A DNA stretch of 58,331 nt, counting the filler, from Sluysia triapertura (taxonomy: Eukaryota), in assembly GCA_046118255.1 (NCBI GenBank). It is 4 parts of 4 records of this genome, joined end to end, with 100 filler letters (N's around TTAATTAATTAA, not from the genome) between each part and the next. Parts side by side here need not be neighbours in the genome. Positions count along the whole stretch, not along the records: positions 1 to 19,358 come from JBJNIA010073165.1; 3 more parts are not named here. One strand, written 5' to 3'. Every line of letters begins with the position of its first letter. Within the stretch, counting starts at the first letter, position 1. A program made the position numbers and the translations under genes. Positions 1,338-33,335 of the stretch are shown piece after piece. Under the pieces are notes generated by a model that saw only the letters and a program-made list of their open reading frames with translations, did no database searches and was not told the origin of the DNA.

Positions 1338-4300
1338 ATAATGTTGTCAATAAACAATTCAAATTACGATAAATTTATTACAAAAGAAAAAGGAATGTTA
1401 TACAATCAATATATAATAATATCAATATAATTTAAAAAGATTGTGTAATAAATAATCTTCAATTAAAGAATTTTAAATAAGAAAGTTTAATGTGCTACCT
1501 TGAAATAGTAGCAAAAGTTGAATTAAATATTCAGTATATTTTAGATAGGCAATTTTAAAAATTGCAAAATATTTATTAATAAAAAACTAAAGACAATCGT
1601 AATGACAGCTTAGCTCTTCGGCAACGAGTTGTTAAATATCTTGACGTGGATGGAGTTCAACACGGATCAAATTTTTTTTAAAAAGAATTTTTGTGTATAA
1701 GATTTTTGTGAGATAATGTTCATTTTTTGGAATAAAAATAAATAAAATAATAAATAAATAATTTTTTTAAAATAAAAAATTAATTTAAAATTTTACTAGG
1801 AATAAAATTGTACGTTGTGAAGTGGAGCACCAGAGTGGTGTTTAGTAAATTATCATTTTATAAGGTAGACGTCACTTTCTAAATTATCTAAGCATCTGGT
1901 ATTGAAGATAGTAGGAATTGAAATAGATTCCTTACTCTGTCAATCTGGTATTGAGGTTGAAATAAACCTTAGTCATTCTTCTGAATCACTGAATTATATA
2001 AATGTATAAATAAATACAATAAAATTAATTAGGTTGTACTTATGAATAACCTCTTGAGTTTGTTGTAAAGGATGGGTATCAGCTAACTGCTTTAATTCAA
2101 ATAAAAACAAATTTTTAATAAATTTCTAATCATGCATGACATTTTGCAATGCTAATTTATTATCAGGAATGCTTCAACAGCTTTACCTTTCAAATGGAAT
2201 TGGAATTTTTATTTATTGGAATTTTAATTTTATTGCATTGATCCACTCAAAATATCTAATACAAAGCACTTACCAGCCCAACACATCACATTCCTTACAA
2301 CTTCTCGCGTTATTTCTTCAATACTTTATTCATATATTTCGACATCAGTTTGCATAAATGTTATTATGGTCTAAATGCATGTATTTTAAACCGCATACAT
2401 TTCCTACCTTCTACAATCCAAATAAATAAGTGATTGTAACTTTGTTCATAATCTAGTCTATAAATTAACATGACAAATCAAAACACTTTAGTAAAATTTT
2501 TTTCGACTATAAATTATAATTCTTAATGCATTATAATGTACTTTCAAATTCTTACGATGAAAGAGATCAATTCAATACACGACACCTTTTTAAAACCCTC
2601 AACCTTTCATATATTCTACACTCTTTCATAACCGATTACATACAATACATTTATAACAGTTATATCCTAAAGATATATATGCTTTATGTTTATTAATTCC
2701 AAAAGATATTCAGTAATACATCAAATATATAATAATACTAATAAATCAAAATATTAATAATTATTATTATCATTTTCATCATAGTAATTGTAATATTTTT
2801 ATCATCGTCATCATCAGCATCACCTTCTGCACACTATGTCGAATGTTAGTTAATTTGAAATTCATTGGCAACATATTATTAACAATATTTTTCGCCTTTT
2901 TCATTTTAATCATTTGGTTTTTAATTTGATATAAGAATGTGCATAACATTATTTAAATCAAATCAATTTAAAGTAATGTTCAATTGTGATGGCCGGGTTG
3001 ATTTTGAACATTGCGCGTATAAAGTTCGTATAGATTTAAAAACTTTATTATTATAAAAAGAGTTGCTAAACTTAGGCTTAAGGCCCGCTCCAAATTTTAA
3101 AGTTCTATTATCACAATCGATTTTATGAAATGTGGACTTAAAGTCCTTTTCATTATTCAAATTTGATAAATTAATATTACTAAAATTCGGCTTAATGCCT
3201 TGTACATTGTAAAAATATTGAAATTTGGGTCCACAGCAAAAGACGAGCAAAGTTTTGACTTGCATTTAAGATAAAACTTGATCACACATGAAATTCTTAT
3301 AGCTAAAAAGTCATTAAAGTCTTTTGGTTGAATAAAGAGTATAAATTCCAATCTCTCGATCTAGTATTGTAAAGATTAAAAGAATATAACCTAAAGTTTC
3401 CAAATAAAAATTTATGACGTGAGCTGTTTCACGATAGTACATAAAAATAAGTTCACACGACTTAAAAGCATTGTAACGAAGAGATGGATTGAAAATACTG
3501 TCGTAGAAAATTGCCAATTTCTTTTGAATAATTCGAAAAACATACTACGTAATTCAACTATACCTTAAAGTTATCCAGTGTATCCATGAAATTGATTGTG
3601 AAATTCGAAAACGTGCTGAAATTACCCTAAGTTTTAACAAAGATTTAATAGACTTATAGAAATTATATATTTATATTATTTGAAATGTAAAAACATTAAT
3701 GCGTTGTGGATCATACCTACGATGTAAAATTACGCGCTTTATAAATTACTATAAGTTAATTATTAGCCAAAATGGTCTGTCAGAAGATAATTTAACGAAA
3801 CTCTTGGTTATCATATAGACTAAGCAATGGACTTAGCGTTATAGAAAAGCTCTCTAAAGTCGTAATGAAATATAAACTAGATATATTCTAATTGATAGAA
3901 GTGTAAGAACCATAAATTAACATGTAAACTATTTTAACGATGAGATAATATACTTTAACTCAAGAAGAATTCAAGGAAATATTAAATGTTACTTGCGCAA
4001 AGGATAAATTAATAGAATCTTTTTGTCGAGGCACTTATTCCTAATAATAATTCGTCTTTTTTACTATCTCATTAGGTACTTCTTACGCGCAATTTCTGCT
4101 AGAAGTTTCCATGTTTTATCGGTGAAATATATTTTCTTAGTCTACCGATCCCTTCCAAGACATACTTTCTGAGTATTCTCTAAAATCTCACAGAAAAGGA
4201 ATCATTTACATTACATACCTTTCATAAATATTAGCGTACACTTCGTACTCATTAACAAAACTTACTACTATATGGAAAAAATTGTTCAAGTAATCACAAA

Positions 4301-5504
4301 ATTATGTAGCATGTATATATTTAATTAGAGTAAAATAGAGAAATTATGAAAAATTAGAAAAAATATTTCCTATTATTTAATTTCAGTGAAAAATACTGAA
4401 AAATAGTATTTTTCTATAATAATAATGTTAAGTTGAAGACATCACGATCTCATTTGAGAAATAATAATAATCAAAATAATAATTTTTAAATTTTGCTTAA
4501 ATTATTTACTTACAAAAGTAAATAAATATTAAAAATAAAGAATTTATAAAAATAAAATAATTATTTACAAAAATGAGTTAGTAATAGATATTAATTTTAC
4601 TTAAAAAATTAATAATAATAAAAATTGGCATACAAACGAAATATTGATTGGATACGAATCATTATAAATACAGATTCTTTTCAGTCGTTATTTTACAATT
4701 TATAACCACATGATATTTTATTTCATAAATTCATCAATTGTTATTGTTAAATATTTGAATTTAAAATTTGACATCAGTGCTTTCCAAGGAATTTAGCGAT
4801 TTTATTCTTTAATTTTACATAAGTTTAATAATTCATAAGTAGTTTCATGCAGTGAATCGTAAAATATATTAATATCAGTTTATTTCGCCAGATTTAAGGG
4901 GATTAAAATCCATCTCAATTATTAATTTAAACTATTAAATACTTTTAGCTTTAATCAATTAAAACATTTGTATTCTTTTTGTATTAACATTCTGTTTGTC
5001 TATAATTTATATTTATTGTTGGTTAACGACTTATTTATTATTAGAAAAAAAGTTTTGGATATTTGTGATATAAACATTTAATAAATTTCTGTTATTGTAT
5101 AATAACAAAAGTTTTAAATTGTTGTGAGTAATTTCACGTAAATAATAATTTGTTCTAGTTATTAACTTCTAAAGTGGGATAAGTATTCAGTTTAGAATCT
5201 TAAATTTAAGTAAAGTATAGAGTCATTATACTATGATATATTAAGTTATACAACGATTAGTTAAGTGCAAATTTAGTTAAATTAGTTACAAGCACTCCTA
5301 CTGCACATTTTAAATCGTGTACTGTAACCGAATCCTGACAAATTTTATTTTGCTGAATGTTGAGAATAAATAACGCAGCAATAAGATTATTAATTATAAT
5401 TAGTTAAATTTTACAATTACAATTAGTAACACAGTTTGTTTGTCATATACATAATATTGAATATTTCTCTTCGTTCAGAAAATTAATATTTTATGTAACA
5501 TTAA

Positions 5505-5734
5505 CCCTTACGCTGCGCAACACGTTTTGAAATTTTGAGACTGCTGTGCGCATATATTTCAGTGGTTGCGAGTTTATTTGTGTTGAGCAGTTTGTATTCC
5601 ATCCGTATGCAATATATGGCGTAAATAGTCGTATGTTGAACAGGAAACAATTTTAACATATGATGCGAAAATACTCACTTGGAGCGTATGAGACATTATT
5701 TTTAAGAATATATGCGTGTAGAGCAGCGAAAGGG
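5505..5734. mobile_element. piggyBac-type MITE (230 bp)
   Basis: TTAA on both flanks (5501-5504, 5735-5738). TIRs CCCTTACGCTGCGCAACACG and revcomp CCCTTTCGCTGCTCTACACG match 17/20. CCC...GGG termini; no ORF. Confidence 0.88.
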
Positions 5735-6294
5735 TTAATTAATAATGTTTTGACATTCGATTTTTTGGAATATAATTATAATTATTTAATTATTCAATTA
5801 TAATTTTTAATAGATGTAAAATTGCTATACAATTGGTAATATTTTTGATTTTCAATTGTTATTGTTGGTATTACATTTTCACATTGCTATAAATTTAATT
5901 AATTAATATATTTTTAGACTTTATCCATTTTATGCTTTAAATTTCATTAGGTTCTAAAGTTGTCTAGTGCTTCATAAGACATTCAGGGGATCTAGGTGCT
6001 TCCAAATTCACTTTTCCTACTTTTTATCTTCTGTTCTAAATATAAACACATCAATTTTGTCTGGGATATTATCAGAAATAATTTTATTTCACATGTACTT
6101 TAAAGATTGCAAATACTTTACAAGGTTTCTCAAAGGTCTTAAACGCTTTATGAAGACTTTAAAGATTCTTAAATTCGTGTAAGATTTTAAATATTCAAGG
6201 GCCCTTTAATGCTTAGAAATGTTTATAGGATAGTCTTAAGTTTCCCAATGGTCTCAGAAAATTCTAAGACATTCTTCTAAATTGACTAAATGAC

Positions 6295-7789: not shown

Positions 7790-10150
7790 AAACATCTAGT
7801 GTTTTGGGCTATAACCGAATTAGATAAAACAGATATTATCAAACACTATATTCCCTTAGATAATGAAACACCAATTAAGCAAAAACCTTATAGATTAGCC
7901 TATCTCTACGAGACGAGGTTCAAAATCAAATTAAAGAGATGAAAGACATGTGATACGGAATAGTTTCTCTCCTTGGACATCACCTATAGTGTTGATTAAG
8001 AAAAAGGATGGTAAATATAGATTTTGTTTAGATTATAGACACTAAATGTCGTTACGAAAAAAGATACTTTTCTATTACCACGAATTGACGAAATGTTAAA
8101 TAAGTAAAACAATTCAGAATACTTTACGTCAATTGATTTACAAAGTGGTTACTGGCAAATACAAATTGTTGAAAAAGATAAACAAAAAACAGCAATTATA
8201 ACTTACAATGGACTATACGAATTTATTGTGCTTCCATTTGGCTTAACAGAAGGACCAACTACATTTCAAAGATGTATGAACTATATTTTAATGGATGTCT
8301 CATGCTATGGTATATATTGATGACATATAAATATATTCAAAAACTTTTGAAGAACATTTAAATGACATCAGTGAAGTATTACAACAATTGGATTTTGCGG
8401 ATTAAGAATTAAATTATCTAAATGTGAATGAGCAAAATCTAGTGTATCGTTTCTTGGTCATACAGTATCAGCTAAAGGGATTCAACCAGATCTCTTTAAT
8501 GTACTCCTATTAAAGTATAATTATTACAATGATTTTTAGGATTAGCAGGATACTACAGAAAATTTATTGAATATTTTGCAAAAATTGCGCACCATTAAAT
8601 TTATTAATTAAAAGGATCCAAACTTTGGTGAAAGAAACAACAAGAAGCATTTGAAACTTTTAAACGAAAATAAATATCTCATCCTGTTTTAAGATTTACA
8701 GATATGAATTTATCATTTATTATTATGACAGACGCTAGCGGTTATACTATAGGATCAGTGTTAGGACAAAAAAGAAAAGAAAATGAAAAAGATTATGTTA
8801 TTGCTTAAACCACATGCAATTAATTATTCAGTATTTCAAAAGAAGCTTTAGCGATTGTTTTTGTGGTTAAACAATTCAATCTTTATATTTATTTACTGAT
8901 CAACGCCCACTACAATGGCTTGTGACACAAAGGCACATCGAATCGGTTAATGCGATAGTCCATCTTATTACAAGAGTACGATTCGAAATAAAATATAGAC
9001 AAGAAAAGTCTAATGCAAACACTGATTTTTTATCCAGAATAGATGAGGACAAATGTCTGGCAACTTTTATAGCATGTTTTAATAAAAATTGATTAGTAAG
9101 GGAGGAACAGAAAGATGAAAAATTAAAAATTATTAGACAGGATAAAAGATTATTCAAGAAATCAAAGGGTAACCCATATCTATAGTAAAATGATATATTA
9201 ATATATAATATAAAAGGAAAGTTATTTTTAAGAATAATATTTTTTACGAATATCATAATGCAAAATTAGGTCATTTATCAGTTAAAAAGACTTCGACTGC
9301 AATAATGAAAAGATATTATTGGAAAGATATAAAACTAGATGTTAAAAACTGGTATAGTAACTGTGAAACCTGTTTACGAAGAAAAAATAAACAAATACAT
9401 AAAACTTACCTTAAACAAATTCAAGCTATCTCAGGACCAATGGAAATAGCTTCCATGGATGTAATAGGTCCATTATGTGAAACTATAAAAAGAAATAAAT
9501 ATAGAGATTAGTATTTTCAGATTATTTTACTAAATTGCCTGAAACAAAAGGGATACCTGATCAAAAAGCATTCACGATAGAAAAAAATTTTATAGATGAA
9601 ATTATTTTCATGTATGGCCACCTAAAAAATTAATTACTGATCAAGGTACTAATTTTACCAGTGAAATACTGGTAGAAGTATCTAACTTTTTAACATTAAA
9701 ACATCTGCTTACCACCCACAAAGTTATGTAATCGTACATTAATACAAATGCTACCTGCATATACTAAAACAATTGAGATGAATTTATTGCACCTTTTTTA
9801 TTTGCATACCGCAATGTAGTACATGAAGCTACTAAAGAATCATCATTTTATTTAATTTATCTTCGATAAACTAGATTATTTATCAAAATATTTAGAAGAC
9901 AATTATTTAGAGATAATAAAGGAAAGAATGAAAGAGGTATGGAAAAGAGCTAAATTGAATATAAAGTTTTACCAGGAATCCTATAAGCATTAAGAGAGTA
10001 TAGTATAACTTAGTAGAATTTAAAGAGTGATTGAATATTATTATATAACCCATTACATAAAAAATGTTTAAGTAATAAATTCTACAAACCTTATGATGGT
10101 CCATATATCGTTGAAGATACCACCGAACAAAACCTGAAAATAAAATTATA
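7790..10150 (+). mobile_element. pol: Decayed Ty3/Gypsy LTR-retrotransposon pol (RT, RNase H, integrase with GPY motif)
   Basis: RT motifs: [70 protein letters not shown] (~8313). RNase H: TDASGYTIGSVLGQ (~8728), KEALAIVF, TDQRPLQWL. Integrase: LGHLS, CETC, MDVIGPL, ITDQGTNFTS, PYDGPY (~10090). The RT-RH-IN order is diagnostic of Gypsy. Many stops and frameshifts. Confidence 0.96.
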
Positions 10151-10253
10151 AAAAGAAAAAATGTAAATCTGTAATAATTCTAATAATTCTGAAGAAATAT
10201 ACCAAAATGAGATAATTAACAATGTTTTAAAAGCACCTAATATATCTAAATTA

Positions 10254-10840
10254 ATGACAATCTTAATAATGTGCATATATATTATGATCACTTGGGCAAG
10301 AGATGGTACTCATATTGAAGACTGGATATTTAATTCATATATCATACGTAAAAATTAAACCTAAATTTACTGTTAATGACAGTTATCTTTATAATACAGC
10401 ATGCCAAAATAAATATGACATGCACCATGCAATGTATAGTGAAAATGAAAGTCTATTTTCATGCATTAATCTGAATCCCAACACAAATTATACAGTTTTT
10501 ATAAAGGTTGGAAATAAAACATCAAAAACTAACCAAGAAATGTATCCTGTTTTGCAAGTACTTACATATGCAGAATCTAACATTTGTAATGAGTCATTTA
10601 TATAAGTTAACGTAGTATTTAAACTACATATTATTATAACTTAAAACATGGACAAAAATTTATTATTTTATTAGAATTATATTTGTCTTTCAAATATGAA
10701 CCAAATAATTAACATTGAAGTATTTCCATTAACAAAAGATTTATTTTATGAAGATAGAAAATTATTAATAGCTTAAATAGCAGATCGTTGTACTTGAAAA
10801 TACTGTCAGGCCAGATTATTCTTATAGTTCCTAAAATATA
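10254..10840 (+). pseudogene. Env-position ORF relic after the Gypsy integrase: signal-peptide-like segment plus fibronectin type III-like domain
   Basis: ATG at 10254 gives MTILIMCIYIMITWA|RDGTHIEDW. After a frameshift, ORF 10303-10605 contains SCINLNPNTNYTVFIKV (FN3 L.P.T.Y.V.V pattern) and several N-x-S/T sequons. Confidence 0.5.
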
Positions 10841-12380
10841 AAATAATAACAATAATAATAATTAATCATACTTACCTTATTTGACCTTAAATTTCTAAAA
10901 ATAAATAAATATTAATAATAAGCTTACTGATACATTTTCTCTTCATTGATTGGAAATCTAAAAATATAAAAATTAATTATTAATCATTGCTTACTGGTGA
11001 TATAATAGACCATTGAGTTCACAAGAAAATTAATTAATCGTCTGAAAAATAAAAAAGGAGTTTACTTGGCAGATTGATTGTAACGCAATTCTGTGGTGAT
11101 AATTAGAATTTCTACGTGGCAGATTAATTAACTTGGTAGATTAATTATGATTTGGTAACGCGATTTCATCGGCGATAATTGGAGCTTATCTTCTAATTGA
11201 TTAATTAGCATACGACCGATTTCCTGAACGATTAACAAAAATCTTATTTAAATTTATTAAAAGTTTTCCGAAGAAATATCAGTAAGCTTTTTATGTTAAG
11301 GCTAATCTCTGTTAGTAGATAAAATATTACCACTTAAAATCTAAAAGTACACGTTTAGTTTTCCACTAAGCATAAAATCGTCTTTTAAAATATTTCATTA
11401 TTGTTTTAGAAATATATTATTATAATTATAATAATAGTTTATTTTACCTTTATTATCTTGCTTAATTGGTATTTCTGGTTATATTTTTCTTTTAATAATA
11501 TATTTATTAGTTTTTCAATGTCTTTTTGCTTGAAATGATTAATTTAAAGATATAAGTAAGTTATATAATTGAAGAATAAAATAGACGTAGTTAAGAAGTA
11601 AATTTTTGTAAAGAGTATACATTTATCGCAATAATAAAGTTGAAGTTATAATATTTAAGTTGGGATAGTAAAAAGTTGTTATGGGATCATATTTACTAAT
11701 AAATAAATAGAGTAAGTAATTAGACAAAGAAATATAAATTAGTGTAGTTTTGAATATAATCTTTTAGAAATTAAAGAAAAGATTTCTAAGTAATTTGTTC
11801 TCATAATTTTGTTATTTCTACGAAAAAGAAGAATATATCCTTTGTACATATTTTAATTGTAAGAAAAGTTTTTAGTTTAGTTTTTGAGTCTGTGTGCTGT
11901 TACTTACGAGTGCGTCTCCTTGTGATTAAAGCGTACATCGTAAGCGGACCTTTAACATTAAGTAATCAATTTGCAGAGTATAAGAAAATACTAGCAATAC
12001 GATATAAAAATTATGTATATCGCAGTAAATTGTCGAATAAAGTTTATTATACATCAAACTTTTAAATTCAACAATAAATATAACTACTATGAATTACTCA
12101 AAAGTGCATGCGACGATTTGCTACATGCATAATTTTACAACCACAGTTATAGGATTACGTATAATGATGTTAGTTATAGCAATAGGAGTATTGATAATGT
12201 TAGGGTTTATTTTATTTTATAATTATAGTTCTAAAAATAGATTCGAAAGATATATTACGGTATGTTTACAAAACCTGCTTCCAGACAATAGAATCTTGCG
12301 TTTAAATTTTACTACTTACTAACATTATTAATATTTTTTCTTAATTTTTTTACGTTTACATCTATAAAAGAATTACTATA

Positions 12381-12553
12381 CGATTTATAATTTATAAATT
12401 ATGATTTATAATTTATAGTGTATAATTTATGATTTCTAGTTTTTGATTTATGATTTATAATTTACAATTTACGATTTGTGGTTTATAATTTATAAGTTTT
12501 AGTTTATGATTTATAGTCTGTGATTTATTATTTATAAGTTACGATTTATGATT
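12381..12553 (+). repeat. Degenerate 7-bp tandem repeat (RATTTAT)n
   Basis: More than 20 consecutive GATTTAT/AATTTAT-like units. Confidence 0.85.
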
Positions 12554-12821: not shown

Positions 12822-13315
12822 ATGGAGTTTAAGTTTTAATCATTTATGGGTTTTACGAAATTTCAGTTACATGTTTAAAATTTTAACAATAGGTAATTCA
12901 TCAATCGATAAAAAATTGTTTTTATTTTGATATACTGATGACAATTTTACTTCGGCGTAGGTATTGATTTTAAAGTTAAGACAGTAGTTAAAAATGATAA
13001 AAGAATAAAATTAAAAATGGGATACAACAGGATAAATAACGAAGGCTTATTATCGTGGTGCTGTGGGATTTATTTTGATGTACGATATCTCAAATGAAGA
13101 TTCATTGAATTCTGCTTATTCATGGGATAACGCACAATGATCGAGTCAGTTTTACAGGTAGAGGCTATCATTTGGAAAATCAGCTTTGTTTGGAGTTCTT
13201 GGGAACATCAGCGAAGACCGTATTCGAAATACTTGTATGTATTATTTGTGATAAAATGAGTGGATGTTTGTATTTAGATTTGAAACTTCAACAGAAACAA
13301 AACTGTCAGGCGAAT
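12822..13315 (+). pseudogene. RAB3: Rab3 small GTPase pseudogene (no introns seen, multiple internal deletions)
   Basis: [102 protein letters not shown] and IICDKMS are Rab3-specific. Stops and frameshifts present. Confidence 0.92.
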
Positions 13316-16224: not shown

Positions 16225-17946
16225 ATTCTACTATTAGAAGCGAATTTCTTTTGTTGGAAAATAATTATTTTTAAGTGATTTTAAAGGCAAATAATTTTAT
16301 ATGATTTTAGAGGTTTGTGATGACAACCTAACAATAATAATGATATTAAATTTTAATTTAATGATATTGAAAATATAAGGGGATTGTTTAACACAAATCC
16401 CATTATCTTTTTAGATAATTAAAAAGATAATGAAGTTGAACACAAACGGAATTCAATCAGTAAAATTGGTCGGCTTGTCACAGGCTAAAAAAGAATAGAC
16501 AGCTTTAATTTCAGTCTTGTTCAATTTCTTATTTTTCCATTTCCTAAATCATCATGAAGCTGCTATATATGCAGTCATATTTTTGCAAAAATATAGACAG
16601 ACAAAATTTAAGCAACAAAAGCAAACTAAAACCTTCTAGTTGTAGAGATGCTGCTTCAATTCATCAGTGGATAACGGTTAAATTGAAGCTATTTCTTTAG
16701 CATTCAGCTAAAATAAAACATTTTTATAAAAATAGGAACGTGTTTGGTATTGAATATATTTTGTATTAATACAGGCGTCGAAATTTATGTTAGATAAGTT
16801 GTGTAAACCCTGGTATTGATTTGTTAAAAGATTTATAATTTGAGGACGATTTTTCATTAAAGAATAATTTGTATTAGTATTATAAAGAATATTTGTTGTA
16901 ATCATGTGATAATATTGGAGAATAGATAGAGATTTTTGAATTTATTTAATTATTGAGTTTTAATCTGATAAATTAAAATGTATTAAAAGGCACAACAAAA
17001 TCAAATAATGTGTTAAATTCAACAAGTTTAATAATTAAATGTCTCTATGGATACCTTCTGTGTCACTAAATTAATATGCATTTACTCGATACCAATTCCG
17101 TAAAATGTTAATATTCCTCAATATCTTTAAGTTAATATCAGCAACGACTTAAACTCTTTATCGTCTTGCTATTTAATTAATGTTTGCTTACTTTCTCTAG
17201 AAGTTTGAGTTCGCATACTCGTTCCGATGGACAGGGAATGGAAACGCTTTAATTTAAATAAAGATGACTATCGGTTTAAATCAATAACGGTTAAGTAGAA
17301 TTGAACTTTTTTCTCGTTTGAGTTCCTTGTCGTCTTTTTTATTGTGGTTATTACGGTATATTAAGTTTCGGTTTTATTGTTTTTTTGTTTTTCAGTTCTT
17401 CAATATAATTTAACACTTATATATATCAAAAAATTATAATACTATACATTCAAATTACAATGAATTTAATTATATTCAAATTTCGACATTATTGTGTGAG
17501 TGTATGGGGGTTAATGTTTTACGTTTTGATGAGTTATAATAGATCAAGGCATGGTTGGTAAAAAGAAACTTATGGTGCGAGAGCCCTGACCTATACTTAG
17601 CCTTTATTAATTTGAAATCTTTGAGGGCTTCATCCTCGTTAGACTTAGGTCCCTTGATATTAGTATAATCTACGAGTTCGATATAATCTTTTTGACTTTG
17701 GTTGTTTAGGTTAAAATTATGGTACATATAGAAAACGTAAAAATTGGATAGATTAAAAAATACATTTATTGAAGTTGCAAAAATTTTTAAGCATAAACAC
17801 TCATTCAATTGTCTCATTCTGGAACGCTCTTCGTTGCTATTGGATCCAAGTTTGCTAGAGCACAGATTGATACCTCTAAAATTATAAAATATAATATCAT
17901 TATACAAAGAATTGAGGAGATTTGAACAAGATCTAGAATTAAAAAA

Positions 17947-18813
17947 TTATATACCTCTTTTAAGATTGTCATTTCCATTCTTATCAGCACTAAAAACATC
18001 ACTCGCATGGTACTTCGCAGTGTTCATCTGGCTCATAAACTCGATAATGTTGAAAACACGGTTTGTGTAATACTTCGGAGTATTTTCGTAATTTACACTC
18101 TCGTCAACGATAAATATATGATTTATGATGCGATTCGGGCTATTTACGCTATTCACACCTTCGCTAACATTAAACATATGATTTGTATGATAATTCAAAA
18201 TATTATTAATTGTTGAATAAACTTTATCATGGGACTCATAGCTATGGTCAGGTATAGCCTGGCGGTTTAAAATATCATATTTACAATTAAACGCTTGCCT
18301 GCGATCATCATTTGTAGGATCCATACAGTGAGGATCTGTGCAAAATAAACATTTACGATTGTCGTATCCCGTTTGACTACCTTTGACTGGAACTACTGCG
18401 ATATCTAAAATTGTGAAATTATCAACTTCTGCTTTATTACGCTCTAATATATCATCACTCTTGCCAGGAACTAGATCTAAAACTTTAACATAACATACAT
18501 CATGTCTAGAATTGTTTTCATATCTTGTTTGACTTTCTTTAACTAAGATTTCTGCAACATCTAAAAATGTAACATGGCCGGTTCCTGCTTTGTTCCATCT
18601 CAGTATATCATCATTATCCATCTGATAGACTATCAACGTTACTTTTTTACTAATGCCGCTGAAACTAATTTTTACTTTTTTAATTCTAGTAGCTGCTTTA
18701 ATTTTATTAATCCAGAAGGCTGTCGTGACCGTTATTAAAAATTTTTGACTGTCTGATTTTTCAATTTTGTAATCTCTGATTTTCTTTATTTTGTTTTTCA
18801 GTATGGCTGCCAA
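17947..18813 (-). CDS. Orphan protein (~288 aa open frame) with internal repeats; probably spliced at the 3' end
   Basis: Long open frame in AT-rich DNA. Duplicated block DDILRWNKAG..TFLDVAEILVKESQTRYEN / DDILERNKAE..TILDIAVVPVKGSQTGYDN, plus four ~20-aa repeats (NYHTNHMFNV / RIINHIFIV / KYYTNRVFNI / KYHASDVFSA). True start codon uncertain. Confidence 0.6.
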   Translation of the reverse strand: MAAILKNKIKKIRDYKIEKSDSQKFLITVTTAFWINKIKAATRIKKVKISFSGISKKVTLIVYQMDNDDILRWNKAGTGHVTFLDVAEILVKESQTRYENNSRHDVCYVKVLDLVPGKSDDILERNKAEVDNFTILDIAVVPVKGSQTGYDNRKCLFCTDPHCMDPTNDDRRQAFNCKYDILNRQAIPDHSYESHDKVYSTINNILNYHTNHMFNVSEGVNSVNSPNRIINHIFIVDESVNYENTPKYYTNRVFNIIEFMSQMNTAKYHASDVFSADKNGNDNLKRGI

Positions 18814-19094
18814 ATTATTAATTTTGTAATTCTCTTTTTAATTGGCTTATTATTTTTATTTTAGCTGTACACAAAGCCATGTGCTCGTAATTTTTATTAC
18901 CGTCTGCTTGTAACGATTGAGTTGCAGTACACTGAAATTCATGTTGAATGGAGACAAAAATAAATCAATTGTGATTGGTTTATGAACAAAGGTGTGTGAA
19001 ATGTTGTAGTAGAAATAACAATGTTCCATTCGCTGGCATCCGTTAGCTGGTATATTTTCATTGTTGTGTGTACAACAAAAACGATCCTTCACTT

Positions 19095-19358: not shown

Positions 19359-19458
19359 NNNNNNNNNNNNNNNNNNNNNNNNNNNNNNNNNNNNNNNNNN
19401 NNTTAATTAATTAANNNNNNNNNNNNNNNNNNNNNNNNNNNNNNNNNNNNNNNNNNNN
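19359..19458. other. Assembly spacer (N run with TTAATTAATTAA six-frame stop linker)
   Basis: Identical 100-bp structure occurs three times in the window. Confidence 0.98.
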
Positions 19459-19595: not shown

Positions 19596-22500
19596 CTTTT
19601 AAATATTGTAAATTTTTGTAAAAAATAGAATAGCTTTTAAAATTAAATTGTAATTAAATAATTTAGTTTTTAAATTAAACAAAATTCTATTAGAACATTT
19701 TTAATAAATGAACTCTTAATAAAAACATTTTAAAAGAATATAAAAAACATTAAAACGAAAAATATTGCATTTTTATGGTTTGCAACATTTTTTTGGTTTG
19801 GAATATTTTTAGTCAATTTTATTACGGTAATAAAATTTATATTATCTAAATAATGTTGTTATTTGAAAAGTAAAAAAGAAACCTTTTAATGTTACAACTG
19901 AATGGATATATATAAATAATTTAAAAAAATTCACACGCAAATTTTTGGAAGTATACACGAGTATTTTGGTTATAGGTTTTTGGAGACTTTGGTTACATTA
20001 GATTTTTGTAAATTCGTTATTCGAGTCGTTATATCAACTAAGTGCAGAAGCAGAATTTGTGGTTCAAAAATTAATAAATTATACACACGTCACGCCCCAA
20101 ATTCGATTCAACATCAACAATATATATGTCCATGCAGCAATCGTGAGATTTGTTTTAATAAGATTCATCCTATAATATTTAAGATTAATATTTCACTTAA
20201 TATTTTATTAAATTATAAAGCCAAATATTATATCTGGCTCAATTTTAATTTTTAAATCAAAGTTTCAAGATTAAGTAAATAACTTAATTTTTAATATATT
20301 ATTATCTTATTTTGTTTACTTTTTAATTTTTACACCGTTTGGTCAGAGACCGTTGTATTGTCTAATTTAGTCTTAGTATATTTTGATAATAAACCTCAGT
20401 GTTGTTTAATATTATCTTTTTATTCATTAAAATTAAAATAGAGTATAAACATTTTTGAAAGAATTGTGAAAACTATTTATAAGAAAGAATATAATTATTT
20501 AATAAACTTTTAAGAATAACAAAAGATAGAACACGTTTATTTCATAATAGACATTAAACTAAAGAAATATTTAAGTGCGACCTTCAATTAAATTTGATTA
20601 GTATCTTAATAATAAATCCTAAAACAGTGTCTTGTTCGCATATAAATCACCGACCTCAGGCAAACACTAGTAATAATAATATAATCATTTGCTAGGAATC
20701 TATTAAATTTAAAGTAAAATCACAGCAAGTGTAATGATAGAAAGAGAATAGTGATATTTACCGATTCAGATAGATTATAACCACATTTCTCATCAAATCA
20801 AATATTTTAATGAAAAGATTGATGTGATAATGAATTGTGAAAATATTTCGATCCAAATCTTAACATTGAAAGAAACATTAAATTAACTATATTATTTTCT
20901 TTATTATACAAAACACGAGATTTTGATTACATAGCGAAGCAATTTATATCAACACCTATACCGACGAACATTGAAATACGTAAACGAAAGAGAAATTAAT
21001 TTTTAAAATATATTGATAGTATAGATTGTCCGTTGCACAATGTCAGAATAAATTATCACTTGCTACCGTAACAATGACTTAAAGTATCAAATAATTACAC
21101 CCAGAATATATGAAACTCATTATTGTATCCGCATTGCACATCTCAAAGAAGAGAATTTGCTGAATCAATATGACGAAAGATCAATAATATTGTAAAGTAA
21201 TGCTCATTATTATTTAAAATTTTCACTAATTAAATTTTCATTTTTAATTATTTTTTCATAAATTTAAAATCATTATTACTGAGATTATAATGCTTTTGTA
21301 TTAAATTAAAGTGAGATTACATAGAGTTAATATAAGTTCAAAATTGAGTAACATATAACAATCGATTTTAAATTGAAATTGTATAGTCATTTTAAAGTGA
21401 GATTCAATAAAGACAATATGAAATTAAAATTTATAAACATCAAACATCACTATTACACTTAATAAAATTATTTTAAAATAAAAATCAATAACAAGAATAT
21501 GAAATCATCATATCTTATCTTATCTTATCTTACAAACATGATTTAGAATATTACGATAAGAAAAAAGCTTACTAAATTGAGATTAAATAGAACTGGTATG
21601 CAATCAAAATTAATAAAATTAACTTAAGTTGCGATTCAGATAGAATAGACAAAAGTTATATGTAATCAAAATTTAAAAGCATTATTATCGACTAAAATTA
21701 TCTTAAATTTTGATTAAATAAAAACATAAAACAAAACTTAGTATCACATTATTAGTATGTACTTTATTAATTTGTTCAGATCAAAGAACAATCTTATAAG
21801 TAATTAAATAATTTGTATATAATTAATATTTGTTATCATTGTACATAATACAGAGTTATAATCAAATAATTTGTAATTGTATCATAACGAACAATATCAA
21901 TCAATAACTTGGAATTTTGAATTATACCACAAAATACTATATATATTCAATTCTCTACAACAATAATTGATATTTAATCGAAATCGTATCGGAGATTATT
22001 TCTGCAGTAATACCAAACGATTGTGAGTAAACGAAATACGCACCAAATTGACATTAACTAATTTTACAATCAAAGTAAGAGTTGTTTTTTGCATTTGAAC
22101 AATATAAAATCTTAATAACTATTTTAACTATAACTATTTTTAAAATAAGTATTTTAATTATATTTTGTGCAATTTATATTGTGATACAATTGAAGCATAT
22201 ATTAAGTAGTCTTATTTCATTTTTCTTTGTGAGTGGGTTGATAATAAGGCTACGGAATAATATCAAAATATTACGAATAAAATATATAAGTTTCTTTCTT
22301 TTGAATCATCGAAACTTAACGTTTTAATAGAATAACATAAATTATCATAGATCTTAATTACACGAAATTGATAGATACATAGTCCGACAATAACGATAGT
22401 TTAATTGAATAGTTAATCGATTATTTAGCGCTTCTATCCCGAATTATTGGGATGAGTATTTGAATCCACAATTCCAGATATAAATTCAACATATAGAATA

Positions 22501-23520
22501 TACATATCACCTGTAGAATAAGTTAGTAAAAGCTTACATTAACAATAATAATTTAGATTCTTGAATCTTGATTTGCACTTCTCAGAAAAAAACTCGAGTT
22601 TAAATCATATAAAGACAGAGCTATTATCTGACATATAAAGTTCGTTCCAGCGTATTCAAATATTTATAACTTATAAGTTTCACAAATGTTTAGTATAGAT
22701 ATTACTTGCAGAATAAGTTAATAGAGAAATTTACACTAATAAAAGATTGTAGCTCTAGATAACTTTAATTAGTAACTTAAAGTGACAATATTATTAATGA
22801 AGTTTAGATTATTACCAGAGACTAAGAGTTCATTTCATTTACATTCAAATATTTATAACATCTACTTTTTTAATTTTTACAATGTTTTATTAACATATTA
22901 ATAGTAGGAATAATTGTAGGTCACAAATCTTACAGGTACAAAAAGTACTGTGTTGAATAAGAGTTAGCGGCCAATAAATTTTTAATTAAATTATGTCCAA
23001 AGCTCGGACCCACATTACTCTACGGAGAGTTTTAAATATTTATTGATATGAATATTCATTATACAGGAACCGTTTGGTAGATATTCAGAGTATTAGGCAA
23101 ATATTTTTATGAGTGAACGTATCTGTAAATAAAAATTGACAATAATCTATGTAAAATCGCTTTAATATTTTAAATTTCTATAATTTCTTACATATGTTTG
23201 ATTCGAGGGTCTGAACTTCTTAACTATCTTATCACTTACCAGATAACCGCTTTATGCAATATTAAAATAATATTTTTCACTGGTTTATGAACAATTAATA
23301 ACATGTAAACATTTATTACAAAAATTTATAAACATCAATATACAAAATTCAAATAGATAAAGAATAAACTAGAATTGAGATGATAAAAGTAGATTTAAAA
23401 TTAAAACCTTATGAAGGCTTTTAATTTTATAATAAACAAATTTTAATGTCTTTATGTTTAGAACTTTATTAATTTGGATACAAAACATTAATGTATGAAA
23501 TTTATTAAATTTATTAACTA

Positions 23521-24460
23521 TTAAACACTTATCTTTATAAAAATGAACTTAAATTGAACAAGAAAAACACAGTCTTTATATATTACATGAATTGGCAAAA
23601 TAACAATAATAAAACGACAATAATAGATAAAATAACAAACACTACTGTTCATATGAATGTGTAAGAGACCATGTCCAACGTAGAAAACCAAACTTCTGCA
23701 ATCAGCGACATTTTCAGCAACACAACATATAGGTTTTGATATATTCTCCGAGCGATTTTCTTGCCTCATGAACAACCTGGTTACAAATTCTTCGATATTA
23801 TCAAACACCTCTATATTAAAGCATAATAATTTTAATGACTCTAAATAAAACATAGCCTATCGTTTCCTCTAAGTGACATCATGAACCGTCCAAAAGCTTG
23901 TTTCATTAAAATACTAATCTTTTCTTGTAAAACATCACAAGAATATACTATTTCAATCTTTAATTCAAATTTAAAATTTTAAATTAAATTCATTTTTTAA
24001 AGGCAGTACTGCAATTTAATGTTACACGATGTTCTTAGTGTTACACGTTTCACAATTGTTGTCAAATGTGCAACGACTTTACACATTTTGCTCGATATCT
24101 CTGTCTGAAAATTTTGAAAAAAGAAAAATTCAGTAAGTAATACACTTTGAGAACGTTCATTATAATGTTTTAAATTATCTTGAAAATTAAGCAATTTGCT
24201 GTATTTAACTTCATTATTTAATATACAACAAATATAAACAACAGTTTTGCAAAACATTTTTTTATCTGGTTGAGAATAATTTTCGAAATTCCTCATGCCT
24301 CTAATAATATTTTGAATTTCTCTAGAATCCTTCACAGATTCTATTCTGAGAAATGTTTCGTCTCTAAAAACATCACATCTGAGAAATATTTCATCACTAA
24401 CAACATCATCTCTGGGAAATTTTTCATCTCTATCAACGTTATTTCGGAGTCATGTTTCGA
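23521..24460 (-). pseudogene. Disrupted orphan coding region with a 33-bp (11-aa) tandem repeat x3 at 24345-24443
   Basis: ORFs 23997-24335 and 23521-23853. Units TCTGRGAAATNTTTCRTCWCTA.. start at 24345, 24378 and 24411. Confidence 0.4.
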
Positions 24461-25067
24461 AGGCATAATCTATTCTAAATCTACTTAAAACTTGCATAAG
24501 AAAACTCATAATAATTTAAATTAAAGTCTCATTGGCTCTCATTGTGAAAAATGTATCATTTGAGATGTGGTGGCCAACCTTATTACTTAAAATTTTAATT
24601 TAATTCATCATAATAAAAAATCACATTTCAGTAATATTCCACCTTTTATTTCTTCAAAAAGCATTAAAAATGTAAATATTTCAAAACGTTGTAAGTTCAC
24701 AATTTAATAACATTAAAATCATTCACAACATCGAAAATCATTAAATTTATTTCCAAACATAATAATAATCTAAATGGAATTTCTGTTAATATCTCCAATT
24801 TTACTAATCTCTTTTTATAATTTTTATTCTTTATATTTTTATTATGACAGATATTCCTCCTCCAACAATCGCAATTTTTTTTCATTTCAACATTATTTAT
24901 TGCCTAAAAGAAATTTAGAAACAAACGAAATACGTTTTAAAGAACACAAAGATTTCATTCCAAGACTTTTACACAACTTTATAATTTAGCAATTTTCAAA
25001 GAAATTAAGAAATAGGAAGATTTTGAAATATTTATGTATTTTATTTATTTATTATATTTTATTTTAC

Positions 25068-25098
<31 letters not shown>

Positions 25099-25862
25099 AT
25101 TTTATTTTATTATTATTGTTCGGTATTTATTATTATTATTCTATTTCATTTTATTATTAACGTTATTATTATCATTATTAATTAGTATTATTATTATTAT
25201 TATTATCATTCACACTATTAATTAATTTCTGTCAACTGATCTCAGTAAATTTTGATGATTTAATTTAAATTTTTGTAGCAACTAATATCTGCTCGTTGAT
25301 TATTGGCCGGTAAATCACTTTAGTAAATACTATACTGTGTGATTTAATTATTCAATTAAAAATAAATAAAAACATAATTTCAAATTGGAATTGAGTTACA
25401 AATTTTTCCGTTACAAACTTTTAGCTTAAAAAATATTCAAATCTCTAGCTTATAAATTCACTTTGTTAAAATTGAAACATTTTAAAAATGAGTAATTATG
25501 AATTTTAAACATAACTGGAACTTTTAATTAAATCATGTAAAAACTACGTTCCAGATAATTGTATTGAATTAATTATTAATGATGGTCCTTTATACAATGA
25601 TACAAAGAAGAAACAAACATTTCACCATTTAGATTTAGACAAACAATACGATTAATTTATCATGTACCGAAGCATTACGTGAGATAAAATCTTGTCTACT
25701 TATTTGATGAATATAATTATGAATAGAAGATTCGATGATAAAGGAAACAATCTTAAAGAATCTAAAATGAATTTGTTAAAGAAGTAAATTCTATGATCGA
25801 TCATATTGATGTTTTACCCAACATAACATTAAATAATCATCTGAAATACAATTTTCCATAAA

Positions 25863-25970
25863 AATCACTACAAAACTGCATTATGTTTGTTTGCTACAAA
25901 TAATTTATGCCTATGCCTCAGATATGGCCGTCTATGTCCGTATGCTCACAATGTATCAGAATTATGCTAT
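25863..25970 (+). pseudogene. CCCH zinc-finger fragment, Unkempt/TIS11-like
   Basis: HYKTALCLFATNNLCLCLRYGRLCPYAHNVSEL fits YKTxxC..C..CxxAH..EL with Unkempt-like spacing. The upstream frame is closed by TGA at 25842. Confidence 0.65.
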
Positions 25971-27178
25971 CATTCGTCTAACAATGCCAATTCTAATATC
26001 AAATTAGATCAAATCAACGAGCTAATAGAAAGTAATTCACTCAATTCAAATGATCCAATAAAAACAGATATCCAGCTGAGCTGAATGACTATTCTAAATT
26101 AGAAGTAAATTTTGCTTTATTTGAATTTATAGTTTTCTATTTTTATTAAGATTTTGCTTTGTTATACAACTTGTGGTATACTGAAATATAAGACGCCCAT
26201 CGATTTTTATTATCAAAATAACATTTGGTATATTTTGGTAAGTGATTCATTTTATGTTATAATTAACATATGTTTAGGATTTTATTTAATAATATTTCAT
26301 TGTAAAAGAATAAAAATAAATAAATACTTTCGTTATTGTTTTATAAAAATGTATCATTTTATATTAATAAAATTAACTAACAAAAATTTAATATTTATTT
26401 TAATAAAATATCCAATGAAAATAATTATAATGTTATCATTCATTTTACTTTTAAAATAAAAGCATTTTCATAATACCCCAAAAAATAGCAAGTTATATTA
26501 ATTTAATATAAATTATTTAAAAAGAATACTAAAATAAAATTATAAAAATAATTATAAAATAAATAAAATTATAAAAAATAAAAATATAATACAATAAAAT
26601 AAAATATAATAAAAATATAATAAAAGCAATGAAATTTTGTTTCTGAAACTGAAGCCTGGAGCATTAAAACATTAATATGGTGACATCTTTGGAATTCAAT
26701 AGTTTTATTATACTGTTCCAGTGCCTTGTTTCTTTTGCAAATTATAATGAGAAAAAGTAAATAAGTATGTAAACTTTAAAAATAATTTCAAAAATAATTC
26801 TTATACATTTTGTGCTGTGAAATAAAATATAAGCAAATTTGTAACTTAAATTCATTAAAAAAACAAAAGAAAATGAATTCAGTCTTACTATATATTTATG
26901 TTTAATTATAGATATTTTTAAAACAAAGTGATGTCCGGATTAATTGTATTGTAAATGTATTTATTTTAGTTAATTTTAATATCAAAAGGATTTTAAAAAT
27001 GTTAATTTTTTCCTTTTCTTTCATTTAATTTCTAATTCTCTGTCAAAATTAAAAATTTATATTTTTGTAACACTTCGAGCGATTTAGCCACATTTAAAAC
27101 TTTTGGATTAAATCTAATTAATTTAGTTTTGTTTTTACAAAAGTTATTTGGCGTTTGTATAGATTTATTATTTAATAG

Positions 27179-27180
<2 letters not shown>

Positions 27181-27230
<50 letters not shown>

Positions 27231-27246
27231 TAATAATAATAATAAT
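27181..27246. repeat. (AAT)n microsatellite
   Basis: Directly visible. Confidence 0.95.
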
Positions 27247-28269
27247 AGATAGTAACCACAACTGTGGGACATGTGTTTAGAGCTCGTAATTGTAATAATG
27301 ATAAACAACAACATTGTATAAATCGAATTTGTTTCTGTATATGCTACTCAAATGATATGTGGGTCGTTTGCTAGTCGTTATTGGGTTGTTGACCAAATAA
27401 AGTTGTTCGATTAACGACCTTGAAGATTCAAACTTATGGATATTTCAAATATTGTATCCAGTATCTTAAAATTTACTTTGTAAAAATGAATTAAAAATTT
27501 CAGTTTATTAATCTTGAATCTGATTATTTAAATTTGTAATGATTTGATTAATAGTGGCTTTGTTTTTGAATCTAATTATAGCTTTTTATCGTTTGTAAGC
27601 ACACCAACACGTAAAGAGTTATATTGTATGTATCTTCCATAAAATTTTCAATTGGGTAATTTCTATAATATACGTAACAGTTGGGTGTAAACACAAGGAG
27701 ACAGATGGGATTAGTTTAATCTTGATTTTATAAGGTGACTCTATGTCATTAATAGGTTGTTTACCATGTATTGTCCGGCGGTTTTGGGTATGAAAAATAA
27801 CAGTTCCTCAATTTGTAAAACTTAAAAGGTAAATATGAAATTGTTTATAATTTATGTTTTAACATTTTACTAACAAATGAAAATTGATTTTAATATTCTT
27901 TTACCATAATCCTCTGTTCTTTATTTAAAAATTATAAATAGAATTTTTAATTAAAAATCTTAGCTCAGACAACATTTTTAGTCGACTTTGTGAAAGCTAC
28001 AAAAAATGACCGAAAAAAAGTTACAATGTTACAAAATAATAAATAAGGAAAATGATTTCAGTTATATAAATGGTGGATGACGAAATCAAATGAAAAAATG
28101 GGGCCCAACAAATACTGTGACACAATAATGATAATCGCACTATAATAATAGAAAATGATTTTCTAAATGCATTAATTTATATACTAATTTTTTACTTGAA
28201 ATTGTCCAATCATAAATAAGATAGTCATTTTCTATTTTTTTCTACCACCATAGCGAATTGCAAGATTTT

Positions 28270-28980
28270 AATACTACGCACAACTTTACCACTAGCAAAA
28301 TAACGCAGAGCAGGAAAAATTTCAGGTTCAGACATGCATTGCTTACCAAGCTTAATTGATATGTCCATTTAAAATAGTAAATATATTTTATTGGTATCTG
28401 CATTTACCATTTTCAATTATCATCTAAAACGTGACTGCTATAATTAAATGACGAAATGATTTCTCTGTACCTATTTATGTACACAAAATTTTCTTTTCAC
28501 ACAAAGATTAACAAAGAAATGACCAAACTCTTAGTTTTATTTGTATACACACAAGTGAAGCAAAATTATTTTACTTCATATGAAAAAATTGTGTATAAAT
28601 ATGAGGCGTGTTTTCTCTTTCATCATTTCCACATATTTCCTCATAGCCAAGTTACTTTCTTGGTAATGACAATGAAACAGTGTTAATTGCGGTTATTTTA
28701 TAATAATGTATCACTGAAATTATATTTCATGTTTTATGAAAAGATAAATCTTGATAATCGTAATAAAAATTATTAAATTATCAAAGCGTGTCTGGGTTTT
28801 CTATTTCTTTTAATCATTATTAGCGATAATACCGATACATACTTGAGATTTAAAGCAAAATCACCCTATTTTCTGTTCATATTTTCATAAACAAGACAGA
28901 AACTCATACTTAATTCAGTTACTGTCAACTGCATACTCTTAGTAAAATTTTACATCAATCTGAAACATCTGTCATAGTCA
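28270..28980 (-). pseudogene. Divergent TATA-binding-protein-like (TBP/TRF) pseudogene
   Basis: In TBP order on the minus strand: SLIMIK..PRHALI (cf. VIMRIREPRTTALIF), SNLAMRKYVEMMK (cf. SRLAARKYARVVQK), EPEIFPALRY-FASGKVV (cf. YEPELFPGLIY..IFVSGKVV). Short upstream GT-AG introns, e.g. 29020-28984 (37 nt). Confidence 0.55.
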
Positions 28981-30340
28981 TAACTATTGTGACAATGAAA
29001 TAAATAATAATATTACTAACCCAGTCACTATTCATATCTAAAATGATAATATAAATAAAAAAACTTATAACCTGGTGTTGTTTTGTTGTCGATTATCTGA
29101 AATGGAATAGAAGTCATTATCTGAAATGAAATAAAATAATTAGTACAAATTCATATTGATAATTTTATATTTATCAAAAAAATTATATAATTATTATTAT
29201 TATTTATATTATCAAAAAATTATGAAAATTAATTACCTGCAAAATACGAAATGTTAAAGATTGGAAAAAATATAAAGAAAAATTTAGTTATTAATACGAC
29301 ACACAAGTAAATATTATTAAAATCAGTCAGTGTTACTGAAATTTAAAGAATCAATTTAAATCTTTTTTGTTGCTAAAAATAAATTTTGGTTATAAAACTT
29401 TTGTGGAATTCGACTGGTTGTAAAAGTCTCCTTGACGTCAATTATCGGTTAGATAATATTGGTTAAAAATTCTCTGTTAACTATCGACTAAGCGTTATAA
29501 AATTTTATGGTTTTTTTGTCAACCATCCAATAGATTATTTTGGTTATAAAGCTTAATTAACATTTTACGATCCATTCAGTTTTTCAAATAAACAATTGTT
29601 CTCATCATGACTTAAAATTATTACTAAGTTAATTATGTATGGTTTTTATTTATCTGAAGGGAAATATAAAATAAACTTAAAATATCCTATTCACATCTAG
29701 TTTAGTCTAGATATAAAGTCATTTTTAAAATGTGCAGTTTTTTCTAGAAGATTTCTTCTGCTAACAATTTCATTTGCGTTATTATTCTTGTTTTATTCGA
29801 TTGTAAGTGTTTAGATATATTATTGGTATCCTGTTCATAAAAAACTTTAGTATTGGTATTTTTTGAGTTTTTCTTTTGAAGTTTAAAGTATAATAAATTA
29901 GAAAATAATTAATTGAATATTATAAGTTAACAAGAAATTAACAGACCATAAGTAAAACTTATAATTAAAAGTGCATAAGGTTTTAACCTATAGAATAAAG
30001 AAATATCAATAAGCTCTTAAATTTATAGAGACATAATACGAATTAGGTATAATCACAACTATTAAGAATTATAAAATTTCTGAAAGTTGAAACAAAGAAT
30101 ATAATTAAACAATTCACGAATTAATAAATTACATAAAGACCATGCGCATAAATTGTAGATCGTAGGTGAACCATAAGTTTAACACATTTGTACATTAAAT
30201 AAATTAAATTTATTAGATAAAAACCAATATACATCTCAGTTATGCTCATCGACACATTTTATATAATTTAGAATCGACTTTAGTTAGATGAGTTTCTATT
30301 TTCATCGAGGATAGTAAATTTCGAATTCATAAAGCTTAAC

Positions 30341-30440
30341 NNNNNNNNNNNNNNNNNNNNNNNNNNNNNNNNNNNNNNNNNNNNTTAATTAATTAANNNN
30401 NNNNNNNNNNNNNNNNNNNNNNNNNNNNNNNNNNNNNNNN
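30341..30440. other. Assembly spacer (N run with TTAATTAATTAA linker)
   Basis: Same structure as at 19359. Confidence 0.98.
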
Positions 30441-30684
30441 AATCAGTTCAATTAACGTTCCAATAAATCAGTTCAATTAACTCCAATTAGATCAAATATT
30501 CCAACAATTGAATCTACCGTTCCAATAATTAAATCGACTAAATCTTTTCACTGTTAAAAAATTAATCATTAGTTTCATGCTCCTTACCTTTTTATACTTC
30601 TGAATATCCGATTTTATAATAATTAAAATATCCGTAGTTTTATAAACAAAATAATATAAATTTTCGAAAAATATCGACAAAATA

Positions 30685-30912
30685 ATATAAATTTCCGTGA
30701 TTGAAAACGTTCGATTTCCGATTAAAATTTCATAAATTAAAATTATTATTATTTACAATTTATAAACAATTATTAATGACTAATAAAACATTCGATTTAT
30801 ATAAATTTCCGTGATTGAAAACATTCGATTTCCGATTAAAATTTCATGAATTAAAATTATCATTATTTACAATTTATAAACAATTATTAATGACTAATAA
30901 AACATTCGATTT
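30685..30912 (+). repeat. Near-perfect 114-bp tandem duplication
   Basis: ATATAAATTTCCGTGATTGAAAAC...AAAACATTCGATTT starts at 30685 and 30799, with about 3 substitutions. Confidence 0.9.
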
Positions 30913-33158: not shown

Positions 33159-33335
33159 CCCATTCGCTGCCAAGCCCAAATTATATGAAATCATCCCCAT
33201 TGCCATTTATATTTATAATTTGCTTATTCAAAAGCCTGCATGTTATAATACATTTAAAGTAGGACGAGTATACCCGTCTTGGCAATGCGTGACACCCTGC
33301 CAAGGACGAGTATACTCGTCTTGGCAGCGAATGGG
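33159..33335. mobile_element. piggyBac-type MITE (177 bp) with palindromic subterminal repeats
   Basis: Perfect 16-bp TIR CCCATTCGCTGCCAAG; TTAT on both flanks; internal GGACGAGTATACYCGTCTTGGCA occurs twice. Confidence 0.9.

Follow-up and report, generated by a model that had tools for sequence, protein, structure and literature searches.

The window analysed here is a 58,331-nucleotide stretch of Sluysia triapertura DNA (assembly GCA_046118255.1) with a GC content of approximately 25%. Spacers of the form N44 - TTAATTAATTAA - N44, at 19359-19458, 30341-30440 and 41327-41426, join contigs into what is likely a pseudo-molecule, and neighbours across a spacer are therefore not real neighbours. 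The element described below sits in the first of the joined pieces. A separate, spacer-bounded piece carries an uninterrupted 522-aa hnRNP L-like frame (38506-40074, minus strand), the best named matches of which are the flatworms Calicophoron, Schistosoma, Opisthorchis and Macrostomum (41-42% identity), and the host is therefore likely a flatworm, perhaps a planarian given its AT content. Other features of the window include a short element at 5501-5738 that is bordered by TTAA on each side and has CCCTT...AAGGG termini, which we take to be a piggyBac-like MITE; a low-depth fragment with an internal stop at 13021-13128 (+), presumably Rab-GTPase-like by motif; an mRNA cap guanine-N7 methyltransferase-like frame at 17476-18837 (-), with two matched stretches and apparently rearranged (Pfam E 4.6e-11); and a 263-aa coiled-coil-looking exon at 35762-36553 (-), without a Pfam match, which we assume to resemble FAM184.

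In the first piece lies the 3′ part of a high-copy Ty3/gypsy LTR retrotransposon, in decayed form (Table 1). Pfam identifies RT, RNase H and integrase zinc finger domains in a pol remnant spanning approximately 7790-10145, and the order RT - RNase H - integrase, with a GPY/F motif at 10086-10112 (+), is that of Ty3/gypsy elements. The RT at 7790 marks the 5′ boundary of this copy. No LTRs of the element were found, there being no long direct repeat around it in the window, and none could be recognised as a 3′ LTR after the 7-bp tandem array.

Table 1 Features of the element and its post-integrase cassette (window coordinates).
Feature	Position	Strand	Evidence
Reverse transcriptase, disrupted by stop codons and changes of frame	7790..8500	+	Pfam RVT_1 E 3.8e-14
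RNase H, broken	8506..9044	+	Pfam RT_RNaseH_2 E 2.5e-16; tblastn to L002
Integrase, broken: zinc finger, core, C-terminal part	9209..10145	+	Pfam Integrase_H2C2 E 1.1e-15
N/E-rich linker in GPY frame, after two stop codons	10167..10253	+	Motif position
Signal-peptide-like hydrophobic stretch, GPY frame	10254..10298	+	Prediction by eye and hydropathy
105-aa open frame with five sequons and two cysteines spaced by 20 residues; likely an FN3-type domain	10288..10602	+	
Decayed cassette continuation	10603..10803	+	High depth in bin 10573-10839
1,193-bp solo-LTR-like insertion interrupting the cassette	10804..11996	.	TG...CA ends, 4-bp direct repeat
93-aa open frame comprising a four-sequon stalk, a membrane helix predicted at 12161-12217 and a short tail	12041..12319	+	
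7-bp tandem array, close to where the high-depth region ends	12383..12553	+	Tandem Repeats Finder

A metagenome scan with the RT core alone returned one locus from 133 candidate stretches, at 64% identity. This locus, L002, is a 12.9-kb contig open at its 5′ end and is the sole intact relative found. Its single open frame, 3,426 aa or longer, encodes a gB/chuvirus-type env, three aspartic proteases and the RT, RNase H and integrase domains, along with two cassettes comparable to the one described below. The env (Monjiviricetes_fusion, residues 470-1109, Pfam E 4.7e-94) lies upstream of the proteases, which occupy nucleotides 3668-5600 as three domains within the one polyprotein. The first cassette sits between the second and third protease, and the second follows the GPY motif, fused in frame after the integrase. 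Paired hydrophobic segments (1585-1603/1753-1771 and 3020-3031/3324-3342) each enclose an ectodomain, with additional hydrophobic segments scoring 1.96 inside the post-integrase ectodomain and 1.81 in a protease. A 496-aa exonuclease ORF is located downstream at 10617-12107 (Pfam RNase_T E 1.4e-5); neither this nor the last ORF of L002 finds a match in the window.

Among 11 loci compared, L002 gave the best match to three pieces of the window (RT, RNase H and integrase zinc finger), the fourth piece being mostly out of frame and uninformative. The window RT shares 45% identity with the L002 polyprotein over 255 columns, the integrase matches residues 2621-2950 (tblastn), and the RT core of the window pairs with L002 at 92/89 support, a value obtained with a 70-aa core and lying below the tool's star threshold. 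Neither Pfam nor comparison with L002 revealed gag, env or protease upstream of the RT in the window, and L002 residues 101-2084 have no match anywhere in it. On the minus strand at 43919-44491 and 46289-46420, a frame with weak likeness to kinases (E 0.0045) and a match to residues 58-100 of L002 (E 2.7e-4) are possibly another decayed piece of a giant element. Of the further loci collected, L004-L012 are gypsy-type pol genes within bacterial MAG records and likely reflect eukaryotic host contamination. Scans of viral contigs with RT, pol and env returned 0, 0, 0 and 1 loci.

Shortly after the GPY motif of the integrase, the original prediction had described an open frame running into a hydrophobic stretch, followed by a frameshift and an FN3-like domain, and all the motifs it named were located in the window. 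The linker sequence SEEIY...SKL (10188-10253) occupies the same plus-strand frame as the GPY motif, from which it is separated by stops at 10149 and 10164. Its hydrophobic continuation has a 12-residue hydropathy of 2.7; given that 33 of 102 stop-free window frames reach 2.5, this stretch is by itself not beyond chance and is ordinary for AT-rich DNA. L002 has a hydrophobic stretch at the corresponding place (residues 3020-3031). The FN3-like motif LNPNTNYTVFIKV lies at 10471-10509, in a frame other than that of GPY. A plus-strand frame as long as 105 aa arose in 3/2000 shuffles of 10167-10803, and five sequons per 105 aa are equalled by 3/102 stop-free window frames of at least 60 aa. For the remainder, up to 10803, no domain could be assigned and no significant L002 match was obtained in any frame.

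The cassette resumes beyond the insertion, outside the interval originally considered. The length of the 93-aa frame was reached in 1/2000 shuffles, and its predicted 19-residue helix has a hydropathy of 3.07, with 5 of the 102 stop-free window frames reaching 3.0. The overall order is signal, FN3-like domain, decayed part, stalk, anchor and tail. On the basis of hydropathy, this is the order of a type I membrane glycoprotein (signal, sequon-bearing ectodomain, helix, tail), which occurs twice in L002 on the same basis. The surface-protein anatomy proposed earlier is borne out and now extends to a predicted anchor. Since two stops split the GPY motif from the signal stretch in this copy, we infer the fusion of the cassette to Pol from L002.

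The insertion that interrupts the cassette is flanked by a 4-bp direct repeat at 10800-10803 and 11997-12000, and is read as a solo-LTR-like element of a lower-copy family. An alternative 8-bp duplication at its ends was dropped, as TG...CA termini with 4 bp fit a contig of run X1 that joins 10803 to 12017 and skips the insertion. Sequencing depth was summed over the assembled contigs of this run, placed at 80% likeness; such sums do not equal copy number, nor do they prove long-range linkage. Run X1 contains 66% of the sampled words, and run X2, with one 261-nt contig at depth 2, was left out. The insertion has a depth of 152-582, versus 20-42 thousand on either side.

In run X1, the pol bins have a median depth of 25,568, with six of the seven at 15-46 thousand and one dipping to 704. 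Similar levels are seen after the integrase (23,939-42,409 over 10039-10839) and in the anchor part (19,890-39,078 over 11908-12441), compared with 61-191 in the downstream flank beyond 12709 and 23-52 for long single-locus contigs; values are down to about 60-70 by 12709. Cassette depth thus tracks that of pol and falls at both ends of the insertion. Among the joints listed, a single contig connects 10561 to 12371, and one contig crosses 10161/10182 with 65 letters on its shorter side. A further very deep repeat is present at 5767-6033 (depth 23,643), with no match to the L002 polyprotein.

It could be argued that the cassette is another high-copy repeat, or a host gene fragment, that came to lie beside pol by chance. 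Indeed, none of the run X1 contigs among the pieces listed spans pol to anchor or the whole element, no LTR bounds the element, and the cassette shows no significant sequence match to the post-integrase region of L002. However, depth is continuous from integrase into cassette, the linker and signal stretch are in the GPY frame, the same order recurs within a single frame of an independent relative, and a single-copy host gene would not reach such depth; we regard a chance neighbour as very improbable. Because the depth equals that of pol and a similar cassette is fused after the integrase in L002, the cassette very likely forms part of the element, in agreement with its assignment to a Gypsy element in the original prediction.

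We then consider the identity of the ectodomain, for which an FN3-type fold had been suggested. A phmmer search with the 105-aa window frame gave three matches among 1.84 billion representatives, all three to FN3-repeat proteins, with E-values inflated by the repeats of the targets (4-5 stretches each). These metazoan surface proteins (tenascin-X-like, sea-urchin fibronectin-like and a crab receptor phosphatase) are the only database matches of the frame; identity is just 26-43% over short stretches, and no donor gene can be named. Both window cysteines align gap-free to the sea-urchin FN3 repeats, which have them at the same spacing. Alignment with the L002 inter-protease cassette is likewise gap-free, with 15 identities in 58 columns and both cysteines aligned. 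This score was equalled in 2/500 shuffles, as one of 32 comparisons, and would fail correction. A two-row profile built from these two sequences matches seven solved chains (E 0.018-0.54), of which six are contactin or fibronectin FN3 domains, all as weak matches. The frame also carries an L-x-P-x-T-x-Y-x-V motif and has FN3-type nearest neighbours, each match being weak. In the Atlas, its neighbours are fn3 clusters (0.82-0.84), and the nearest neighbours of the L002 post-integrase ectodomain, a sequence not selected for FN3 likeness, include fn3 clusters at 0.87-0.89; as both recognition values are under 2300, these scores are leads only. The L002 post-integrase ectodomain additionally gives a weak FN3-profile match (E 2.3e-4 on one sequence).

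Several other searches were less informative. Pfam fn3 matches at the curated threshold were obtained for neither the 105-aa window frame nor the cassettes of L002; the window frame has a weak Pfam match to CRLF2-like_D2 (E 0.062). AlphaFold single-sequence models had mean pLDDT of 47 and 39, and fold searches from them were uninformative; when the two-row alignment was compared by HH-suite, the probabilities were 2.2 and 0.6, and single-sequence PDB searches found nothing relevant. Neither the FN3 frame nor the integrase piece matched a protein in word-index searches (21 and 16 candidates, respectively), a negative of little weight. No relative of the FN3 frame was present in 534 metagenome contig stretches, and viral contigs contained one 26-residue match (L001). 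The FN3 profile matched none of the 11 other loci (L003-L013, of which seven include the integrase end and L013 is without pol). Two of these, L003 (948-8463) and L008 (4620-9491), bear RT and have long frames with hydrophobic segments after pol. An in-window match at E 6e-5 was discounted as circular, the profile having been built from that frame's own matches. The frame before the shift brought no gain in FN3 profile score, and the first FN3 strands are therefore unaccounted for.

With all FN3 scores weak, pLDDT values of 47 and 39, and hydrophobic stretches common in the window, the likeness might be ascribed to chance in AT-rich, decayed DNA. Such an origin appears highly unlikely, as four libraries converge on FN3, the open-frame lengths are rare in shuffles, and the cysteine spacing is kept in L002, an element of unrelated source. 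The domain thus probably adopts an FN3-type fold, as judged from its sequence, and this part of the original prediction stands as likely, with each test weak and the Pfam fn3 threshold not reached.

The relationship between the window cassette and those of L002 is uneven. Against the post-integrase ectodomain, the equivalent in position, the window frame scores no better than chance (110/500 shuffles), and the anchor frame is marginal against L002 (21/500). The likeness to the post-integrase region, as assessed by sequence comparison, is accordingly one of architecture, with homology not significant in shuffles. The window FN3 domain is closer to the inter-protease cassette, which suggests that modules have been duplicated and shuffled.

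Among known systems, the closest are Burro (GYPSM1) elements, giant LTR retrotransposons of gypsy-like type found in Schmidtea mediterranea and Dugesia tigrina, which are described in the available sections of PMC6431247 as having env in frame before the protease within a giant polyprotein that includes AIR1, Smc, MATH, BIR, ankyrin, BCL2-like, SUMO-like and dUTPase-like modules. As in Burro, the window DNA is AT-rich, the host is likely a flatworm (hnRNP L matches) and the element is very abundant, with a depth far above its flanks; L002 is likewise one huge frame with many extra modules and a mononegavirus-like fusion protein before the protease. This gB/mononegavirus-type env in frame before the protease is seen in L002, the window copy starting only at the RT. 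In contrast to Burro as portrayed in those sections of PMC6431247, L002 has two cassettes of signal, FN3-like domain and helix, and three proteases. A complete Burro element exceeds 30 kb and has long LTRs; the L002 contig covers 12.9 kb.

Certain L002 stretches presumably resemble BCL2-like, SUMO-like and dUTPase-like domains by eye, but these candidates have no Pfam or PDB match to the corresponding families. As those domains were not confirmed in L002, we call the element Burro-like rather than Burro. It likely belongs to a lineage of Burro-like flatworm errantiviruses, with L002 as its nearest match among the 11 loci compared. Platyhelminthes errantiviruses have a GAG-ENV-POL arrangement with an HSV/gB-type env before pol (PMC13524379, available parts), and the env of Smed_errantivirus_1, in the portion of the supplement accessible, shares cysteines and several motifs with that of L002 by eye. 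The proposal of a new lineage is not upheld, since the arrangement of L002 has been published for both Burro and these flatworm elements.

What the cassette does within such an element is a separate question. The original prediction placed it in the position of an env. In L002, a separate gB/chuvirus-type fusion protein is found upstream of the proteases, and the identification as env was not borne out. No Pfam match to baculovirus F, gB/chuvirus or phlebovirus G families was obtained for the post-integrase cassette, either in the window pieces or in the L002 cassettes, and the same scan did detect the L002 env (E 1e-95); a missing match is no proof against homology. Given that L002 carries this env plus two cassettes, the product of the cassette is probably an accessory protein and not a fusogen.

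In the window family, the cassette might nevertheless have replaced a lost fusogen and be the sole envelope-like protein. Its location is the one classically taken by env, the window yielded no env match, and its FN3 domain is nearer the L002 inter-protease cassette, so that modules were likely shuffled between lineages; small non-canonical membrane ORF3s are also reported for rotifer elements in the available sections of PMC5408684. The missing env is uninformative because the copy is cut 5′ of the RT, and a complete gB-type env is present in the nearest relative. The visible coding pieces furthermore amount to approximately 300 residues, small for a fusogen, and match no fusion-protein profile. 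We consider such a replacement improbable.

On balance, we favour the reading that the window contains the decayed 3′ part of a high-copy, likely Burro-like element encoding a likely FN3-type membrane glycoprotein, predicted to be single-pass, that is probably an accessory attachment or adhesion protein and not the fusogen. Viral polyproteins can be membrane-threaded, and by analogy the L002 polyprotein would thread the ER membrane three times via signal/anchor pairs, at the env, the inter-protease cassette and the post-integrase cassette. The proteases, RT and integrase would stay cytosolic, and the three ectodomains would enter the ER lumen. Signal peptidase and the proteases of the element could then cut the cassette free, yielding a small glycosylated protein of the cell surface whose synthesis is coupled to that of the fusogen. 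Displayed on particles or on producer cells, this protein may bind host cell-surface or matrix proteins, and such binding could help the separate gB-type fusogen to reach target cells, for example stem or germ cells. By analogy with herpesvirus gB, which needs partner glycoproteins, attachment or adhesion is a plausible specific role for the product, at somewhat less than even chance. A stronger version can be envisaged for the giant errantiviruses of flatworms, in which a captured FN3 receptor-binding protein, cleaved from the polyprotein that also yields the gB-type fusogen, partners this fusogen for two-part entry in the manner of herpesvirus attachment glycoproteins; the FN3 modules would have been duplicated and shuffled along the polyprotein. 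Such a system is not known to have been reported for retroelements. We hold this stronger version to be rather unlikely.

Alternatively, the cassette might encode a host-modulating surface protein of the infected cell, acting as a decoy receptor, a block to superinfection or an immune dampener. One or two FN3-like domains followed by a helix and a short tail resemble the ectodomains of cytokine receptors, in keeping with the weak CRLF2-like_D2 match, and two divergent cassettes in L002 fit an arms race at the host interface. The available sections of PMC6431247 report apoptosis and ubiquitin regulators in Burro and list BIR, BCL2-like, MATH and SUMO-like domains for it. Nothing speaks directly against a modulator, but co-translation with env in L002, which would place the cassettes in the membrane of the fusogen and in equal amount, would fit a role on particles equally well. 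We view modulation as possible, though less likely than the attachment role retained in our preferred reading.

The lineage type is already known, and no description of an FN3 cassette within it was found in the texts searched. Within that scope, no FN3-bearing gypsy element was found in the literature; one candidate was an unrelated fungal glucosidase. The term 'fibronectin' is absent from the text of the Burro review (PMC6431247), from the main and supplementary text of PMC13524379 (the main text also lacks 'FN3', 'immunoglobulin' and 'accessory'), and from the available portions of the Luticola genome paper and of PMC8532177. The errantiviruses in the accessible parts of PMC13524379 are presented with no mention of a second membrane protein, unlike L002 with its cassettes besides env. 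In bdelloid LTR retrotransposons, the available sections of PMC5408684 describe non-env ORF3s as modules captured downstream of pol, some of them small membrane proteins and others DEDD exonucleases, with 'fibronectin' and 'immunoglobulin' absent from those sections. L002 resembles these elements in its downstream exonuclease ORF, whereas their ORF3s are separate ORFs and the L002 cassette is fused to Pol.

Planarian Burro is abundant and is expressed upon PIWI knockdown, according to the available part of PMC8532177. The cassette cautions that an ORF with a signal and a helix in the env position need not be an env. To our knowledge, envelope-bearing retrotransposons have been described with one surface protein, the fusogen. 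If correct, a second membrane protein, of host-like FN3 type and derived from the Pol polyprotein, would represent a new type of accessory gene, and would point to a way in which these elements could locate their target cells or damp signalling in the host.
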